From assembly GCA_020201035.1 (NCBI GenBank), contig JAIVHO010000038.1, forward strand, positions 72,165 through 136,164: a stretch of 64,000 nucleotides of DNA. Direction: 5' to 3'. A program made the position numbers and the translations under genes. The notes under the pieces are model-generated. The model did not search any database and had not been told where the DNA came from. It was given only the letters and a program-made list of their open reading frames with translations. This DNA is from Bacteroidales bacterium. GTDB lineage: Bacteria; Bacteroidota; Bacteroidia; Bacteroidales; VadinHA17. Below are positions 17,595-61,923 of this stretch, in pieces; the first letter of the stretch is position 1; each line of letters begins with the position of its first letter.

Positions 17595-17751
17595 GAAGAG
17601 GAATAACAGGAATAGCAGGAACAGGTATGGCAGGAACAGAAATAGCAGGAACAGGAATAGCAGGAACAGGTATGGCAGGAACAGGTATGGCAGGAACAGG
17701 AATAACAGCAACAGGAATAACAGCAACAGGAATAGCCGGAACAGGAATAAC
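17595..17751. repeat. 15-bp tandem repeat array: 9 full units plus degenerate leading units
   Basis: Units of AGGAACAGG(T/A)AT(G/A)GC run from 17617 to 17751 in exact 15-bp register, with variants AGCAACAGGAATAAC and CGGAACAGGAATAAC. Degenerate copies precede from about 17595. Confidence 0.95.
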
Positions 17752-28074: not shown

Positions 28075-28160
28075 CGGCTTAACGCCTGTTATCTTAACAT
28101 TCAGCCGGTTCAGGTTACATAATAACCTCCGGATGAAACTGTTTACAACTTATCATTTCA

Positions 28161-28272
28161 TTAAAGCCGCCTGCGTCGCATCCTTAATATAAAGCCGCCT
28201 GCGTCACATCCTTCATATAAAGCCGCCTGCGTCACATCCTTCATATAAAGCCGCTTACATATTACCCTTCAG
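28161..28272. repeat. 28-bp tandem repeat, 4 units, with the last unit containing the folD stop codon
   Basis: Unit 1 is at 28161-28188 (3 mismatches). Units 2 and 3 (28189-28216 and 28217-28244) are identical: ATAAAGCCGCCTGCGTCACATCCTTCAT. Unit 4 (28245-28272) is degenerate and covers the last 5 codons plus the stop of folD. Confidence 0.9.
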
Positions 28273-49406: not shown

Positions 49407-52361
49407 CTACCTCTGGTTGTCATGAAAATCCTTTCGCCTCTCATATTTCAAGTCCTGAAGCACACTCGCCTTGACCCTTATTGTAAAGTTCCATTGCTGC
49501 AGGTAACCAATAGGAACCCAGTTAAAACTCATATCCCAGCAGTGCAGGTCACGGGTGATACCGATATTACTCATGGTAATCTTCTTCTGAGTGAGATCAT
49601 AACCTGTCTGGTAGGTGATGGCAAGATTATCTGTAAGCTTCAGATCACCATTTATTGAAAATTGCTGCTGTATCGTTGATTCATCCCTCGGTTTGGAATA
49701 GAAGAAGGTATAGGAGAAGCGCAGCGACCAGGGTGCATCGAAAAGGGCATATCCGTATTTATCAAACATACTGTTATCTGAAGCAGCTGCTGGCCCCTCC
49801 TCACGTCCCGGGATACCCTCCATGGCTCCTCCATTTTCACCGGGTCCTGCCTCCTGCAACGCTCCGGTGTCCGGTGGCCGGTTTCCTGTATTACCCGTAA
49901 GGTTATCTATTATTCTTCCCAGGTCAAATCCCACACTTACATTAAACGATGTGAGTCGGGCCGGAACCCTGTTCACACTCCATGAGGAGCGATTGATCCT
50001 TCTGAACAGAGAGTCCTGGGCATATGGATCGAACGATCCGTTTGCAGATATATCAATCTCCTTCATCAGGCGGGTACGCATTGTCATCCTGACAGGAGAC
50101 CAGCCCAGTGAATCGGCAAAAATATTATAAGATGTATTAAACCCGAGGTTATCAATGATTTTGACCTTTTCACCCTGACCGGTAGTGTCATTACGGCTTC
50201 TGACTTTTGCTTCTATAATATTGGTGAGTGAAAAACTGAGGTTTCCGCTGCGGTTCGAGAGTGATGGGGTACCGTAAATATTACCGCTATAGATTGAATA
50301 CTCCTGCATAGTGCCAAGAGTATCTGTCTGGACGCTACGGTACATATCCGATGAGAGCCCCTCTATCGCAGGCACCATCGAAAAGCTTACGGAGGGTTTA
50401 ACTACATGACGAATAGCAATAATCCGTGACTGCGGTCTTGTAAAACTGTACATACCAAAAATCTGGGGCGAATAGGATGCTGATATCTGAGGGTTTATAG
50501 CCTGCCCGTAGAAGAGTCCGGAGAGCTGATTCTCCACTACCCTGCTTATTGTATCATTGGTCAGAGGGTCATAAAACTCTTCAACCCACTCCCTTTCGAT
50601 CTTTCTGGTATACATTACACCAGAATAACGTACCTGCGGCGAGATTGTAAAGTTATTGAAGGGGCGTATGGGTATTGAGACGGGAATCTCATGTTTGAAT
50701 CCGTTGTCCATATTGTTCCAAACCTCATTTGTAAAGAGCAGGGAATCAGTAGTATTGATCCTGTTATCCAGGCTTGCTGTGTATTGCAGCTGCAGCTCCT
50801 GCCACCATTTTGTTGATCCTCCGCTTTTGGGTTTCAGCGGGTAGAGTCTGCTTGCACTGAATGTCATCTTCGGAAGATTAACCGTAACAGACTTGTTTGC
50901 GGTATTCTGGCTGTGATTAAAACTGGCTGCGAAATTGAACGGGGTTCCTGCCCAGGTCTTTGAGTAACTGATGCTGGAACTTTTGGTTGTGGTAACATGT
51001 TCATTAACGGTATAACTGTTCTCCCTGTCAAAACCACTCGAGCTCATATTTACGCTTGCCGAGAGTCTTGATCCTGGTCTGGCCTTGGCATCCTGAGAAT
51101 GACTCCACCTTATTGAATAGTTAGGATTCCTTGAATAGTTCTCCAGACCCTTGTAGCCTGTGACATTACTGGCATAGGTAAATCCAAAGTTGCCACTGAA
51201 TTTATAACGCTTCCTGTAGTTTGTGGCGATAGCCGAACGCCATGATCCGTTGGTATAGATATCACCTGTAAGCCTGAGATCAAAATAATCACTTATGGCA
51301 AAGTAGTATCCACCCTCTTTCAGGAAGAACCCGCGGTTACGCTCCTCACCGTATTTTGGCATTACAATTCCTGATGCCACCTTCTGCTGTACGGGAAAAA
51401 AGCCAAACGGCAATATCAGCGGCAGAGGGATATCCTCAAGCACAAGATATGCAGGGCCGGATATTATCTTCTCACCGGGGATCACTTTTGCCTTGTTAAG
51501 ACTGACATAGAAATGGGGATGCTCTGCATCACATGTGGTGTATTTGCTCCCTCCTGCATGAAGGGAACCGTCATTGTGCATCTTTGTTATGCCGCTGTGA
51601 AGATAGCCACCCTCCTGCTCTGTCCTTATATTTTTAATAATGGCCTGTCGGGTCTTGAAGTTATATACCAGTTCACGCGACTCAAACTCCTGGCTCCCCT
51701 CCCTGAAGACAGGCGTGTCAACCCAGTTGCCGGCTGAATCCTGCCTGCCCCTTGCAAAGACCTCACCTGTTGCAAGGTCAATATCCATATAATAGGCATT
51801 CAGAAATATATCACCATATGTAGCTGTAGCATTGTTAACAAGATAAACCTTCTGTGTGGCCAGATCGCTGTGGATAGTATCAGTTGCATTGTATACTATT
51901 GGAATGTCAATGGCATCATCAGAAAGAAGCAAAGTACCTGTTGTAAGGGTGTCCTGACTCAGCAGGGTGTCCTGACTCAGCAGGGTGTCCCTCCCATGGA
52001 TATCCTGCAGTAGCAGGGAATCCCTTCTCAGTGTGTCCTGTAGAAAAACAGCATCATATGTTATCAGTTCATTAGACTGCGGAATAAGAGCCGGTTTATC
52101 AACGGGCAAAAAGGCCTTTAGCAAAAATGGAGCATCGGTAGCAGGCAGAGTTTTACGATGCGGGTAATTAAACAACTCTTTATCCCCACCTGATACTTCT
52201 AACCCGTAATTTATCAAATCTGCATCACGGGCCGGTACGATTGTTGATAAAAAGAGAAATATGATTAAAAGATCTGTTTTGTATGCTAATTTATAATGCA
52301 ACTTAATACTATTTTTGTACTGTTTCCGTACCGTATAAAAAGATCGGATAAAACTAATCAA
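49407..52361 (-). CDS. large outer-membrane protein, LptD-like (Bacteroidota-type putative LPS assembly protein)
   Basis: 984 aa with an N-terminal hydrophobic signal-like region, an OstA-like segment and a long beta-rich region with aromatic-terminated strands. Synteny with an amidase and an MlaD-like gene is common in Bacteroidota, from memory. The start is uncertain; an in-frame TTG about 25 codons downstream is possible. Confidence 0.65.
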   Translation of the reverse strand: MISFIRSFYTVRKQYKNSIKLHYKLAYKTDLLIIFLFLSTIVPARDADLINYGLEVSGGDKELFNYPHRKTLPATDAPFLLKAFLPVDKPALIPQSNELITYDAVFLQDTLRRDSLLLQDIHGRDTLLSQDTLLSQDTLTTGTLLLSDDAIDIPIVYNATDTIHSDLATQKVYLVNNATATYGDIFLNAYYMDIDLATGEVFARGRQDSAGNWVDTPVFREGSQEFESRELVYNFKTRQAIIKNIRTEQEGGYLHSGITKMHNDGSLHAGGSKYTTCDAEHPHFYVSLNKAKVIPGEKIISGPAYLVLEDIPLPLILPFGFFPVQQKVASGIVMPKYGEERNRGFFLKEGGYYFAISDYFDLRLTGDIYTNGSWRSAIATNYRKRYKFSGNFGFTYASNVTGYKGLENYSRNPNYSIRWSHSQDAKARPGSRLSASVNMSSSGFDRENSYTVNEHVTTTKSSSISYSKTWAGTPFNFAASFNHSQNTANKSVTVNLPKMTFSASRLYPLKPKSGGSTKWWQELQLQYTASLDNRINTTDSLLFTNEVWNNMDNGFKHEIPVSIPIRPFNNFTISPQVRYSGVMYTRKIEREWVEEFYDPLTNDTISRVVENQLSGLFYGQAINPQISASYSPQIFGMYSFTRPQSRIIAIRHVVKPSVSFSMVPAIEGLSSDMYRSVQTDTLGTMQEYSIYSGNIYGTPSLSNRSGNLSFSLTNIIEAKVRSRNDTTGQGEKVKIIDNLGFNTSYNIFADSLGWSPVRMTMRTRLMKEIDISANGSFDPYAQDSLFRRINRSSWSVNRVPARLTSFNVSVGFDLGRIIDNLTGNTGNRPPDTGALQEAGPGENGGAMEGIPGREEGPAAASDNSMFDKYGYALFDAPWSLRFSYTFFYSKPRDESTIQQQFSINGDLKLTDNLAITYQTGYDLTQKKITMSNIGITRDLHCWDMSFNWVPIGYLQQWNFTIRVKASVLQDLKYERRKDFHDNQR

Positions 52362-52377
52362 AAATCATGATCATTGC

Positions 52378-57565: not shown

Positions 57566-57613
57566 AATACTGATCAGCGATTCCCTGCCAGCAATTACTG
57601 ATCAGCGATTCCC
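57566..57613. repeat. tandem duplication (period about 27 bp) of the 3' end and stop codon of the 57602-60433 gene
   Basis: AATACTGATCAGCGATTCCC (57566-57585) and AATTACTGATCAGCGATTCCC (57593-57613). The second copy holds the real TGA stop (57602-57604, minus strand) and the last three codons. Confidence 0.7.
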
Positions 57614-60433
57614 GTAACTGCCTGCAGAGTAATCCTTTACACATCTGAAACCCACCGTTGAGGAGCGGTCAAAACCGGGTGATACAAGCTGAAGCATTTG
57701 TGTCTTGTTAAGGGGTTGTGGTCCACCCTGGACATACCACCATGATGAATCAGGCCTGTAGTGACTCCCTCCCCTGATAATAACGAAATAGTAAGAGCCG
57801 TTAAAATATACATCATCGGTTAACTGCCACACATTTCCCACAAGATCGGCAGCACCATAAATGCTCTCCCCTTTTGAAAACGCATCAACAGGTGTTGGCC
57901 TGTCAAAACTGTTGTTGCATTTAGTTCCGTGAAACTCATTTCCCCAGGGCCACAGCCTGCCATCATTCCCCTGTGCAGCCAGTTGCCATTCTGCCTCCAG
58001 CGGCAATCTTTTACCGGCCCATTCAGCGTAGGCCCTTGCATCTTCCAGACTTACCCACACAACCGGATAGCGTTCCTGACCCTGGCGGTATACCCCGTTA
58101 ACCCAGTGTTTTAAATAATTTACCGTATCAACAGGAAAATAACCTGACTCTGTTATAAAGCGAAAGTATTGCTGATTTGTAACCGGGTAGCGGTCAATAA
58201 GAAAAGTATCAACCTCAACCCCTGAGGAGTCATATTCAGGATAGGGAATAAAATTATCGTTGGGAGTGAGATTCATCTTCACACGGGTGCCGGGTACAAT
58301 CACCATATCAGAAGGTACACTCCTGGTTGTGGCTGTCTTATGCCGTTCAGTGATCAACCACGGTATATCACCCTTAAGGGTAATAACTACCATATCTGCC
58401 AGTTCGTCACCATCAAACAACTGAATCACAGCATCACCCTGATAACTGCCAAAAAGGAATGATCTGTCAAGCAGGGTATCTCCACGGAGAGTAAATTCGG
58501 TCTTTTCCTTTCCATAGCCGGGTGTTCCCTTCCATACAACAATCTTTCCGGCCATATCTGTCGAAATTTCAAACTCACTGCCTATGTCAGTAACATGCAA
58601 CAGCTCAGGCAGCATGGCGATACAATCAACAGTGCCCTCTCTTCTGCCACCTTCAAATGATTTATTATAGGGATCGGCTGAGACCTCTACAAAATAACCG
58701 TCATCCATTTTCACAGGTTCAAGAGACCTGTTATGCCATAGGGATAACCAGTGATATCCCTGGCGGTAATCTACGGGAAGCAGATTGCCCTCAGCCCCTG
58801 ACGGATTCATATTCAGTAATGTGTAAACTGTTTTACCGGCTGATTTAAACCGGTTCACGTGCAAACCATCTTTCTGAACATCAATCAGTGGTGTCCAGTC
58901 ATTATCCAGAAATGCATCACTGTTCTCCCTGAGTATCTTCGTTGTTCTGGCAAGAAAACTGTAATCATCTGCTGTATCAAAATGCCTTCCAGGTCTGAAC
59001 ATATTAAGTTCAGAACCATAACCGTTAAAGAAAGCAACAGCAATCTCGCGATGAAGAGGAGCCTCTCCCACATCAAGCACTCTGAATATCCCGAACTCAG
59101 ATTTAATCACCTTGTTAAGGTTAAGCTCAGGGGCCATAAAAATTGCATTATGAACCCTTCCTGAAACAATACCCGGCATATCCCTGATTATTGCCATTCC
59201 CTCGGAATACATAACTACCCCTGCCCTTACGCTGTCTGCAGCTTCCTGAAGTTCATAGCTGGAACTGCCCCGGGTATCCAGAACAACACCATCTGCCTCA
59301 ATCTCAGCTATCAGGGCGGCCATACCACTTAAGGGATCTTCTGTTCTGGTACTCATATCCCAGGGATTATAGGCAATAAAAAATCTGGTTCCGTATTGCC
59401 TTGATAGTCTGGCGAAGCTTCTCAGCTGGTCAGTACCTCCCGGCAAATCACGGTAGAGATCCCACTGGTTTCTTGAGTCAACACCCAGCCTGGGCCATGT
59501 TGGCCAGATACCGTAAACATCCAGGAAGCCAAACTGCCTGTTCGACTCTCTTATCAGCTCCCCATAGTTATACTTTCTATCAAAACGATCATAAAATTCA
59601 CGGTCCCATGCAAACTGAAGCATCACCAGGTAACTCTTCCTGATCCATTTAAGGTCATCCCGCTCATAGAGGCTGTTATCAAAATCATAGATATCATAAA
59701 GATATCTGTCCCGGAACATCAGTTTAAGACCCTCATGCCACTCCCCGGCATGAATATCTCCAAAAAGTTCATAGGTAAGGGTACTTCCGGGCGGAAGAAG
59801 GGTATTGTACCTTCCCGTCACTGCTCCGTTGTTATCGCTTCTGCGGGCAATTGCTGTCACACCCATATTTTCCGAAACAGGAATGGATGAAAAGCCCGTT
59901 TCCCATGCATTATCAGGCAGTATAACCCTGACCGGACTCTTTCCGGGCCTGTGAAGCCATGCCCTTGCAAGGTTCCAGGGCCCCTTGCCTGTTATATAGA
60001 CAAAATCCTTATTCTCACCAAAAGGAATAATATTTTCTATTTGCAGGGTGTCAAATCCACCGTTCACAAATGTTATCTGTCCCTTCCATCCAGGATGTCC
60101 TCCGCCATATGATGCAAAAGTGACCCTGAGAGATTCTTCGTAATTGAGAATAAAACGGTTACCGGACAGAGTGGCGCCAACATCATCTGAGTTACGCAAC
60201 CTGCCGTTCAGCTCAAAACTGAACACCGGCACCGACTCTGCCGGGTCTATGGTTGTTGAATCCGATAAAAGGAATCTTTCAACACGTAAGCCGCCTGATA
60301 CTGAAAGCCCCAGGTTCTCGAGATTCTGCGCGGTGGTTACTGAAAACGTGAACATGGTCATCATTAAACAAAAGACAGCCGCTATGCTGAGTTTCCCTTT
60401 TGATAACATTTCGGATATATCTGCTTTTATCAT
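57602..60433 (-). CDS. secreted multidomain protein: unknown N-terminal beta-rich and TIM-barrel-like region fused to a C-terminal formylglycine-generating-enzyme (FGE-sulfatase/SUMF1) domain
   Basis: 943 aa with a signal peptide (AAVFCLMMTMFTFSVTTAQ). The C-terminal roughly 270 aa (FLIDRYPVTNQQYFRF...VSLEDARAYAEWAGKRLPLEAEWQLAAQG...WPWGN...GNVWQLT...RGGSHY...GFRCV) match the FGE-sulfatase fold. An alternative start is ATG 60409 (MLSKGKL). Confidence 0.75.
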   Translation of the reverse strand: MIKADISEMLSKGKLSIAAVFCLMMTMFTFSVTTAQNLENLGLSVSGGLRVERFLLSDSTTIDPAESVPVFSFELNGRLRNSDDVGATLSGNRFILNYEESLRVTFASYGGGHPGWKGQITFVNGGFDTLQIENIIPFGENKDFVYITGKGPWNLARAWLHRPGKSPVRVILPDNAWETGFSSIPVSENMGVTAIARRSDNNGAVTGRYNTLLPPGSTLTYELFGDIHAGEWHEGLKLMFRDRYLYDIYDFDNSLYERDDLKWIRKSYLVMLQFAWDREFYDRFDRKYNYGELIRESNRQFGFLDVYGIWPTWPRLGVDSRNQWDLYRDLPGGTDQLRSFARLSRQYGTRFFIAYNPWDMSTRTEDPLSGMAALIAEIEADGVVLDTRGSSSYELQEAADSVRAGVVMYSEGMAIIRDMPGIVSGRVHNAIFMAPELNLNKVIKSEFGIFRVLDVGEAPLHREIAVAFFNGYGSELNMFRPGRHFDTADDYSFLARTTKILRENSDAFLDNDWTPLIDVQKDGLHVNRFKSAGKTVYTLLNMNPSGAEGNLLPVDYRQGYHWLSLWHNRSLEPVKMDDGYFVEVSADPYNKSFEGGRREGTVDCIAMLPELLHVTDIGSEFEISTDMAGKIVVWKGTPGYGKEKTEFTLRGDTLLDRSFLFGSYQGDAVIQLFDGDELADMVVITLKGDIPWLITERHKTATTRSVPSDMVIVPGTRVKMNLTPNDNFIPYPEYDSSGVEVDTFLIDRYPVTNQQYFRFITESGYFPVDTVNYLKHWVNGVYRQGQERYPVVWVSLEDARAYAEWAGKRLPLEAEWQLAAQGNDGRLWPWGNEFHGTKCNNSFDRPTPVDAFSKGESIYGAADLVGNVWQLTDDVYFNGSYYFVIIRGGSHYRPDSSWWYVQGGPQPLNKTQMLQLVSPGFDRSSTVGFRCVKDYSAGSYGNR

Positions 60434-60615
60434 GGTTCCGTACCTTCTATATATTTCCGTACCTTCTATATAATATCTTAGTTTCTATATATTTCCGCAA
60501 CTTCTATATTTCCGCAACTTCCATATTTCCGCAACTTCCATATTTCCGCAACTTCCATATTTCCGCAGCTTCTATATTTCCGCAACTTCCATATATTTTC
60601 CCTGGCTTCTATATA
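60434..60615. repeat. 17-19-bp tandem repeat array, about 10 units, abutting the start codon of the FGE-domain gene
   Basis: Three 19-bp units (TTTCCGTACCTTCTATATA type, 60434-60491) are followed by six 17-bp units, TTTCCGCAACTTC(C/T)ATA (60492-60593), and a degenerate terminal unit (60594-60615). Confidence 0.95.
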
Positions 60616-60946
60616 TTCATATGGCAGGTGCTTATTCCCCCCACTGCATCGACGCAATTTACACCATACCAGCAACCCGGACAAATCATTAATTAATTTA
60701 AATATAATCCGGACTCTCAAAATCCGGTTTCCTATACAAAATTAATGCCCCGGCAGTGTCTGGAGTAATACAAAAATAATACCCTGTCAGTGGCTGAATA
60801 AACTTAACAGATATTGCTGCTTTTATTACTTTGTAACATCCCGGATTTGTGTACGTATAACTAATCAGTTTATCAACTCTTTTATTTGGTTAAAATATTC
60901 TGTACTTTTAACAACCCAGTATGGTTTCAAATTTGCTGAAAAACTG

Positions 60947-61144
60947 ATGAAACACCTTAAGTACCTCTTAATATTAATACTGATAATAGTAATGGCAGGA
61001 TGTGCATCATCCCGAAAAAATCCCTATGCCCATAAAAAAAGACACTCCTATATTAACGCAACTCAGCTTGGCCGCAACAAATATTTCTTCTCCAGGGAGT
61101 ATCAGAAGAAACTAAAGAAAACCTACAGGAAGAGGCAGGATTAA
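60947..61144 (+). CDS. small basic lipoprotein (hypothetical)
   Basis: 65-aa ORF with a classical lipoprotein signal (LILILIIVMAGC) followed by a Lys/Arg-rich tail. The short length limits confidence. Confidence 0.45.
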   Translation: MKHLKYLLILILIIVMAGCASSRKNPYAHKKRHSYINATQLGRNKYFFSREYQKKLKKTYRKRQD

Positions 61145-61152
61145 CAGGGTCG

Positions 61153-61923
61153 CTATTCACATTCAAAAGTAAGACCATCATATGCCAGTGAAACTCCCCG
61201 GGGCAATATTTTTTCAACCTCGCTGAAAAGTCCCATCTGATGACCAACATGAGTCAGAAATGCCTGTTCGGGTGATATCTGCTCAATTATCGCAACAGCC
61301 TCATCCAGATTAAGGTGTGAAATATGCGCCTCCCTCCTCAGAGCATTAATTATCAGATACCTGACTCCTGCCAGTTTTTCCATACTCTCAGGACTCACTG
61401 ATTTGGCATCTGTAATATAGGCCATCTCACCAATCCTGAATCCGAATACGGGAAGCCAGAAATGAGAAACTTCAACCGGCATAATATCTATTGATCCAAC
61501 ACTGAACGTATTACTATCAATGGTATTGAGATTCATAGATGGTGCTCCGGGATACTTATCCACAGCAAAGACATATGGATATTCCCTGATTATTGTCTCC
61601 CTCACCCTCTCGTCACAATAGATATCAACGGCCTTTCTTGTTCTGAAGTTGAAAGCCCTGACATCATCTATCCCCCCGATGTGATCCTTATGCTCATGAG
61701 TAAGCAGGATTGCATCAAGTCTTTTAACCCCATGTGCAAGCATCTGCTGCCTGAAATCGGGACCGGCATCAATAGCTATCTTAAAATCATTATTTTCAAC
61801 AAGAAGAGCTGTTCTTAACCGCCTGTCCCTATGATCTGCAGATCTGCATACCCTGCAGTCACATGCAATTACGGGTACGCCCTGTGATGTCCCTGTTCCT
61901 AAAAAAGTTATCTTCAAATCCAA
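61153..61923 (-). CDS. MBL-fold metallo-hydrolase (PhnP-like)
   Basis: 256 aa with FLGTGTSQGVP, a Cys cluster CDCRVC, and the HxHxDH motif (THEHKDHIGG). Confidence 0.8.
   Translation of the reverse strand: MDLKITFLGTGTSQGVPVIACDCRVCRSADHRDRRLRTALLVENNDFKIAIDAGPDFRQQMLAHGVKRLDAILLTHEHKDHIGGIDDVRAFNFRTRKAVDIYCDERVRETIIREYPYVFAVDKYPGAPSMNLNTIDSNTFSVGSIDIMPVEVSHFWLPVFGFRIGEMAYITDAKSVSPESMEKLAGVRYLIINALRREAHISHLNLDEAVAIIEQISPEQAFLTHVGHQMGLFSEVEKILPRGVSLAYDGLTFECE

Follow-up and report, generated by a model that had tools for sequence, protein, structure and literature searches.

The stretch of DNA analyzed here, which we call the window, comprises 64,000 nucleotides of a draft genome of an uncultured Bacteroidales bacterium (C62:72165-136164; genome of 2.83 Mb in 76 contigs, 44.8% GC, 94% completeness), and our subject is an array of about ten short direct repeats that ends directly at the annotated start codon of a gene for a secreted protein with an FGE-sulfatase domain. 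The FGE-domain gene occupies 57602-60433 on the minus strand, which is its sense strand, and encodes a 943-aa protein with a predicted signal peptide and a C-terminal FGE-sulfatase (SUMF1-like) domain (Pfam PF03781, residues 709-933, E 2e-36). The matches of this protein in NCBIfam and PDB were confined to the FGE fold, and a family search with its N-terminal 700 aa gave no match. Its divergent partner is an unannotated plus-strand gene at 60947-61144 for a small basic lipoprotein of 65 aa, beginning MKHLKYLLILILIIVMAGC and carrying the lipobox MAGC. The original prediction had overlooked this small gene and taken the MBL-fold gene at 61153 as the next one; with the lipoprotein gene in place, the array sits in a conserved divergent promoter region and not between two minus-strand genes. 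Together, the neighbors of the array encode the FGE-domain protein, the small lipoprotein, an MBL-fold hydrolase, an RsmI-like methylase, GalK, and DnaA.

By inspection of the sequence, the periodicity is unbroken over 60434-60617. On the sense strand of the FGE-domain gene, it resolves into ten head-to-tail units of 15-20 nt, without spacers, at 60434-60610, and an ATAT-rich edge reaches to ~60617 on the same strand. Tandem Repeats Finder (TRF) reported a period of 17 over 60489-60594 (6.2 copies, 94% matches, score 191) with an 8/9-nt sub-period, and a repeat search gave the TRF register; the top TRF score in 30 dinucleotide-preserving shuffles of the window was 63, from 2 copies. The tandem array of about ten 17-19 bp units originally proposed before the FGE-domain gene is therefore real, and the earlier count of three 19-mers, six 17-mers, and one degenerate unit describes the same array in a different register. 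We also agree that the open reading frames (ORFs) called across it, at 60400-60696 on the plus strand and 60478-60720 on the minus strand, are artefacts, their translations being repeat peptides with no family match above the cut-off.

Read in the sense direction, U1 (60610-60591) is a degenerate 20-mer, AGAAGCCAGGGAAAATATAT; U2-U6 (60590-60506) are five 17-mers, GGAAGTTGCGGAAATAT, of which U2, U4, U5, and U6 are identical and U3 carries 2 changes; U7 (60505-60487), U8 (60486-60468), and U9 (60467-60449) are each 19 nt long, U8 being degenerate; and U10 (60448-60434) is a truncated or degenerate 15-mer, with the ATG at 60433 directly after it. The 17-mer itself consists of two GGAA-headed half-units of 9 and 8 nt, and purines make up 70% of the sense strand of the array. 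Spacerless head-to-tail units of at least 10 bp, homogenized in the middle (U2 and U4-U6, with at most 3 identical units in succession) and degenerate or truncated at the edges (U1, U8, and U10), give the array the form of a minisatellite.

A repeat in a metagenome-assembled genome may have been collapsed, expanded, or joined chimerically during assembly, and a 76-contig draft at 94% completeness leaves some room for this. However, the near-identical core spans just ~100 bp, and the variant units U3 and U7-U10 anchor its register; the genes in both flanks follow the order conserved among relatives, about 94 analogous arrays lie across many contigs of the same genome, and relatives with long contigs have similar array densities. 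We regard an assembly artefact as highly improbable.

The annotated ATG has an in-frame stop 15 nt ahead of it, and a second in-frame ATG lies at 60409. The latter is preceded by TCCGAA, to be compared with TTCCTGAA before the ATG of the closest relatives, and would give the protein a more typical signal peptide. A start at 60409, if true, puts the end of the array 24 nt upstream, and the overall picture is unchanged. We also considered whether the units are copies of the real start context (ATCCGAAATG versus GCGGAAATATG), and the likeness is too weak to claim.

Candidate promoters and the leader of the FGE-domain gene

Promoters of Bacteroidetes have the geometry TTTG-N19-21-TAnnTTTG. In this genome, 278 matches to TAnnTTTG fell in 857 upstream regions, and their frequency peaked clearly 20-60 nt ahead of start codons. 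Upstream of the FGE-domain gene, on its sense strand, we found three candidate -7 boxes: the -7-like box TAAATTGC at 60654-60661, a motif match of a type conserved upstream of the orthologous genes, with a TTTG as candidate -33 element 20 nt further upstream (60682-60685); the canonical box TAATTTTG at 60744-60737; and the canonical box TATTTTTG at 60778-60771. A 34-bp tandem duplication (60734-60796, 83% identity) has doubled the canonical -7 box, each of its copies containing one, and leaves the FGE-domain gene with two or three stacked candidate promoters. A terminator-like hairpin, CCGGATTTTGAGAGTCCGG, lies on the same strand at 60709-60727 with an AT-rich tail after it. The AT-rich stretch at 60690-60715, which the original prediction had pointed out next to the array, sits between this hairpin (60727-60709) and the TTTG (60685-60682), a setting that promoter-upstream DNA fits better than an unwinding element.

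All three candidate -7 boxes (60661, 60744, and 60778) are upstream of the array, and a motif scan detected no sense-strand -7-like box within the array or between it and the ATG. The expectation that the promoter might lie beyond the array is thus borne out at the level of motifs, and since every candidate box is upstream, we infer, with the comparison to relatives described below, that the array is transcribed as part of the 5' leader. The same placement removes what the original prediction called a classic phase-variation geometry, as the array is not between -33 and -7 elements but downstream of every candidate -7 box. The gain or loss of a unit would alter the length of the leader and not the spacing of the promoter, so a graded effect, and no on/off switching, is the most that would be expected. 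Beyond this, phase-variable tracts lie between core promoter elements or inside an ORF and are built of 1-9 nt units in many perfect copies; this tract does neither, and its units are 17-19 nt long.

Transcription could also start within the array, with weak -7-like boxes on the plus strand driving antisense or lipoprotein-directed transcripts. Several plus-strand units read TATATTTC, which agrees with TAnnTTTG at 5/6 specified positions, and segments of BrickBuilt, a repeat element of Porphyromonas gingivalis, have bidirectional promoter activity (PMC4596501). Against this, no exact plus-strand TAnnTTTG occurs in 60400-61160, the lipoprotein gene has a conserved promoter-like block of its own ~50 nt from its start and 330 nt past the array, and the array is a single-copy locus with no flanking inverted repeats, so that we hold a promoter-bearing array to be very unlikely.

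As RNA, the predicted leader appears to be unstructured. A 256-nt leader folded no better than its shuffles (z = -0.52), the plus strand was essentially without structure when folded as DNA, and an Rfam search gave no relevant match, all of which speaks against a structured cis-regulatory RNA. The leader does contain start codons. Four units bearing ATATGG, and reading GGAAAUAUGG, give AUGs that open upstream ORFs (uORFs) of 6, 26, 18, and 6 codons (MEVAEI...), all of which end before the main start, and in the four units closest to the real start, ATATAG takes the place of ATATGG and there is no AUG. Translation in Bacteroidetes is initiated without a Shine-Dalgarno sequence. Our hypothesis is that these decoy AUGs, which stand in an A-rich context, could reduce translation of the main frame.

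These features raise the possibility that the array is a contingency locus or rheostat, kept since frequent gain and loss of units tunes expression of the FGE-domain protein through leader length and decoy AUGs. Several observations point this way: in the predicted leader, the array is immediately next to the ATG; A-rich sequence surrounds the AUGs of four units, whose uORFs (6-26 codons) stop before the main start, whereas four start-proximal units have no AUG; the encoded protein carries a signal peptide; and there is a precedent in hmw1A of Haemophilus influenzae, whose expression is inversely proportional to the length of a simple sequence repeat (SSR) in its transcribed 5' untranslated region (UTR) (PMC12721329). 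However, a 17-nt unit in about 6 near-identical copies would be expected to slip far more rarely than SSRs of 1-7 nt, the z-score of -0.52 argues against a hairpin like that of the hmw leader, and housekeeping genes elsewhere in the genome have similar arrays before them, with most arrays at stop codons, so that the class as a whole does not appear to be linked to surface or contingency genes. We consider such a role possible but unlikely.

The locus in related genomes

We compared the locus with 80 orthologous loci, all from uncultured Bacteroidales/Bacteroidota metagenome-assembled genomes; there was no second member of this genome's genus among the genomes compared. The gene order dnaA-(galK)-FGE-lipoprotein-MBL was kept in 70-75 of the 80 relatives, and the FGE and lipoprotein genes were divergently adjacent in 75, the pair adjoining dnaA in 70. 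The array was present in none of the 80 orthologous loci and was not found by a DNA search of 40 related genomes, nor did any relative have an array next to the start codon. The array is therefore lineage-specific at an otherwise conserved locus, which again is characteristic of a minisatellite.

The spacing of the genes and promoter motifs suggests how the array came to be there. In about 50 orthologous loci, a TA(A/T/C)(A/C)TTGC box is found 31-62 nt before the ATG, mostly at 40-52 nt. The corresponding distance here, from the TAAATTGC box to the ATG, is 228 nt, and subtracting the 182-bp array leaves 46 nt. The divergent spacer, at 513 bp, is the longest of all, versus 90-332 bp (median 185) in the 75 relatives. 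Because the remaining 46 nt fall within the range of the orthologues, the spacer is the longest observed, and arrays next to the start codon were seen in no relative, the most economical interpretation is that the array would have expanded a 5' leader that was short in the ancestor.

When we aligned the spacers locally and scored the alignments against 200 shuffles, the only significant block was the lipoprotein-proximal one at ~60879-60914. We had considered whether the unit derives from a block of the closest relatives, ATATATTTACGGATGCGGAAGCAAAAAGTT, with which it has TACGGA and TGCGGAA in common, and set this aside as the array was not significant in the same test. Neither of two metagenome scans (one with a two-unit pattern, the other with a degenerate signal-peptide pattern), nor exact-protein look-ups with the FGE-domain protein and GalK, returned a conspecific sequence.

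Taken together, these data lead us to conclude that the array is probably a lineage-specific minisatellite, born by slippage, in the transcribed leader of the FGE-domain gene. In the history we propose, a ~19-bp piece of the ancestral short leader would have been tandemly duplicated through replication slippage, the copies would then have diverged, and a 17-bp variant would have been re-amplified later; such a history fits the identical central and degenerate edge units. The array would be transcribed within a long, purine-rich, unstructured leader of ~215-345 nt, depending on the promoter used, to be compared with ~30-95 nt from -7 box to ATG in relatives, and it would have no sequence-specific protein-binding role. 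Its likely sole effect would be a modest, graded change in expression, brought about by the upstream AUGs of four units and by the 17 nt that each unit adds to the leader, so that gain and loss of units would be a weak rheostat, if they act at all.

Several points weigh against this conclusion. We assigned the promoter from motif matches and conservation, and the closest relatives carry a different box, TATATTTA, ~95 nt upstream of the ATG. The plus-strand TATATTTC units described above may confer promoter activity from inside the array. With the array and the 34-bp duplication both taken away, the spacer is still ~297 bp, at the upper end of the family range, which means that other insertions also occurred. 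Finally, the abundance of arrays in this genome and its family, described below, could mean a selected function and not tolerance.

Binding sites and the replication origin

The length of the units (17-19 bp) and their tandem arrangement in non-coding DNA resemble the 17-22 bp direct repeats of plasmid iterons (RepA/pi/TrfA-type) and the DnaA-box arrays of oriC, and the original prediction offered a set of binding sites for a regulator or initiator as one alternative. The units would then be bound by a protein controlling the FGE-domain gene, the divergent lipoprotein gene, or local replication. In favor of this, the direct repeats number ten, have a length like that of iterons, and lie in a divergent promoter region, and the GGAA-headed half-units of 9 and 8 nt could suit a protein that reads repeats.

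The evidence nevertheless points the other way. The 17-mer matched no other site in the genome, and it matched nothing in plasmids (by blastn), in viral contigs, or in metagenome contigs; a lone 13-mer match on contig C3, examined as a possible second copy, lies inside a signal-peptide coding region and was taken as chance. The array is missing from at least 75 relatives that have both flanking genes in the same arrangement. None of the neighboring genes encodes a regulator or a Rep-like initiator, and the locus has neither a Rep gene nor similarity to plasmid or viral DNA. A period of 17 bp corresponds to 1.6 helical turns and is out of helical phase, the spacing of iterons being about 11 or 22 bp, and it would turn successive sites to different faces of the helix. 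The homogenized middle and decayed edges also look like turnover by slippage and not like selection on each site. The array thus differs from plasmid iterons and oriC in lacking an initiator gene, DnaA boxes, helical phasing, conservation in relatives, and plasmid similarity, and we found no support for the binding-site proposal; we now judge it quite unlikely.

An origin function, in which the array would supply weak DnaA sites to a chromosomal origin next to dnaA, had been rated unlikely at the outset, and our results agree. Two observations could be read in its favor: dnaA is 4.1 kb from the array, and the cumulative GC skew of the contig has its minimum at ~61.8 kb of the window. The arithmetic behind the 2 mismatches that had been counted between each unit and a relaxed DnaA box is right; against TTATCCACA, however, each unit has 3 mismatches, and no site in the array comes within 2. 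There is no DnaA-box cluster anywhere in the assembly. The window contains a single perfect box (61556, inside the MBL gene) and 22 near-matches, versus 19.4 expected by chance, and in the 719-bp gap between the FGE and MBL genes (60434-61152), the density of DnaA boxes is at background. Across the 80 dnaA-linked orthologous loci, 636 kb in all, we found 3 perfect boxes and no counterpart of the array, and because the array is missing from every relative, it cannot be a conserved origin component.

The skew minimum, for its part, has only 4 kb of contig beyond it, and similar rises occur elsewhere on the contig. Two relatives provide a comparison. On the 2.15-Mb contig of one of them (G015:C1; L114-L163), an origin-type switch of skew, from negative to positive, lies at ~115 kb, and the dnaA-FGE locus at ~673-680 kb, ~560 kb away; in the other (G012), the dnaA-FGE locus is not at a skew extremum. 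It may be that dnaA is no marker of oriC in this family. An alternative oriC at 51789-52377, with three near-consensus DnaA boxes, was rejected as coding sequence of a 984-aa ORF. That the array is part of the replication origin seems to us extremely unlikely.

Tandem arrays at gene boundaries in the genome and family

The array belongs to a numerous class. Using rough ATG-to-stop gene calls and counting arrays that are intergenic, with a period of at least 7 and at least 3 copies, we found 94 such arrays among 315 merged TRF arrays in the genome (111 per Mb). They are concentrated at the ends of genes: a stop codon lies within 30 nt in 52 of 100 stop-codon flanks (median distance 29 nt), versus 18 of 83 start-codon flanks for start codons (median distance 116 nt). 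Convergent spacers contain 25 of the intergenic arrays. The array units are 47% GC, versus 39% in other intergenic DNA. A search for a core motif shared by the 94 units found none: the best 4-mer was in 42/94 (1.9-fold) and the best 5-mers in no more than 17/94, as explained by the higher GC content of the units. The array before the FGE-domain gene is thereby one of ~94 unrelated arrays, which occur where insertions are tolerated, in untranslated spacers.

Among the 19 start-proximal arrays, a -7 box was detectable in 6, and it was upstream of the array in all six. Ten genes that follow such arrays are housekeeping genes, such as those for AdoHcyase, UvrB, UvrC, TyrRS, TrpF, and dNK; the gene studied here encodes a secreted protein, but with arrays before these ten others, the class does not appear to be tied to surface or contingency genes. 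Further examples of intergenic arrays are C62:100321-100435 (window 28157-28271), C36:129205-129322, and C28:3674-3798, and another large array in the window, at 17605-17749, consists of 9.7 copies of a 15-bp unit, AACAGGAATAGCAGG, with 88% matches and a period that is a multiple of 3. At C61:108124-108291, upstream of a histidine-phosphatase-like gene, seven copies of a 24-bp unit each contain the -7-like TTAAATTG, and this array would represent repeated promoter-like elements.

Related genomes also carry such arrays. Two of them (G012:C1:1-400000 and G015:C1:1-400000; L094-L133) have 40-58 arrays per Mb, with different spectra of periods: those of G012 are mostly heptamers and those of G015 are 7-, 8-, and 12-mers, and the present genome has no heptamers and a mode of 15-18 bp. 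About 24 of the 80 orthologous loci have an array of 7, 8, 12, or 14 bp that starts within ~150 nt after the stop codon of the FGE gene (L023, L029, L037, L045, L047, L049, L051, L057, L058, L060, L066-L068, L070, L073-L076, L084, L085, L087, L089, L091, and L093). These post-stop arrays have unrelated units in different genomes. In the window, the corresponding array was given by TRF as 3.1 copies of a 14-bp unit at 57568-57610; it straddles the stop codon of the FGE-domain gene and belongs to the genome-wide class, separate from the array upstream. The recurrence of independent arrays at one position points to a mutational hotspot at 3' ends or, alternatively, to a role under selection.

Among described systems, the tracts of hmw1A and of uspA2 in Moraxella catarrhalis are, by analogy, the closest in presumed working principle. 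The 5'-UTR tract of hmw1A and hmw2A is a heptamer, (ATCTTTC)n (PMC12721329, PMC8262952), and like the array, it places tandem repeats in the leader, between promoter and start codon, where copy number sets leader length and a graded effect is expected. It differs in its 7-nt unit, many copies, and demonstrated high rate of slippage, whereas our array has 17-19 nt units and is known from one genome; the hmw leader also forms a long hairpin that is cleaved by RNase III, whereas no structure is predicted here, and the array is one of many unrelated arrays in its genome. According to a passage in PMC4679880, AGAT repeats in the 5' UTR of uspA2 modulate its expression through their copy number. These repeats also lie in the untranslated region of a gene for a secreted or surface protein, but in that account they are tetranucleotides that vary from 6 to 23 copies between strains, and the present array is known from a single genome.

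In taxon and form, the closest system is BrickBuilt, a 23-nt minisatellite miniature inverted-repeat transposable element with 19 genomic copies in P. gingivalis, leader and tail subunits, and inverted-repeat ends (PMC4596501). Both are spacerless, intergenic tandem repeats of ~20 nt near gene ends in Bacteroidales. BrickBuilt is mobile and multicopy, however, whereas the unit of our array is unique and no inverted repeats bracket it, so that the array does not belong to an element of this type. Arrays directly before start codons are also known from TAACTGA heptamer repeats, found in Beggiatoaceae, cyanobacteria, and a few Bacteroidetes (PMC4679880). As here, those heptamers and the short tandemly repeated repetitive (STRR) heptamers of cyanobacteria form abundant intergenic arrays, many of them directly before start codons, and the relatives in our family resemble them further in being rich in heptamer and octamer arrays. 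In those systems, however, one heptamer is reused across the genome, which suggests a shared binding factor, whereas here each array has its own unit of 10-60 bp.

A broader and more speculative possibility is that this genome, and the family with other periods, uses or actively generates tandem arrays of variable unit in the untranslated spacers at gene boundaries, and that these arrays generally serve to control expression. The present array would then be a translational rheostat working through decoy starts, and the far commoner arrays that abut stop codons would be 3'-end or terminator-like modules. We think this improbable. If it were true, it would mean that there is either a dedicated mechanism seeding duplications at gene boundaries or selection for them.

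As a single locus, the array is of modest weight: a leader minisatellite in one genome, of a kind known from variable-number tandem repeat loci and from 5'-UTR repeat tracts. It is nonetheless a clean and datable example, as 75 relatives show the ancestral state, which allows the site of insertion, between the start codon and a conserved -7 box, to be fixed with single-nucleotide precision. The stronger lead is the growth of arrays at gene ends across the family, which bears on how spacers evolve in Bacteroidales and on the effects that such arrays may have on termination and translation.

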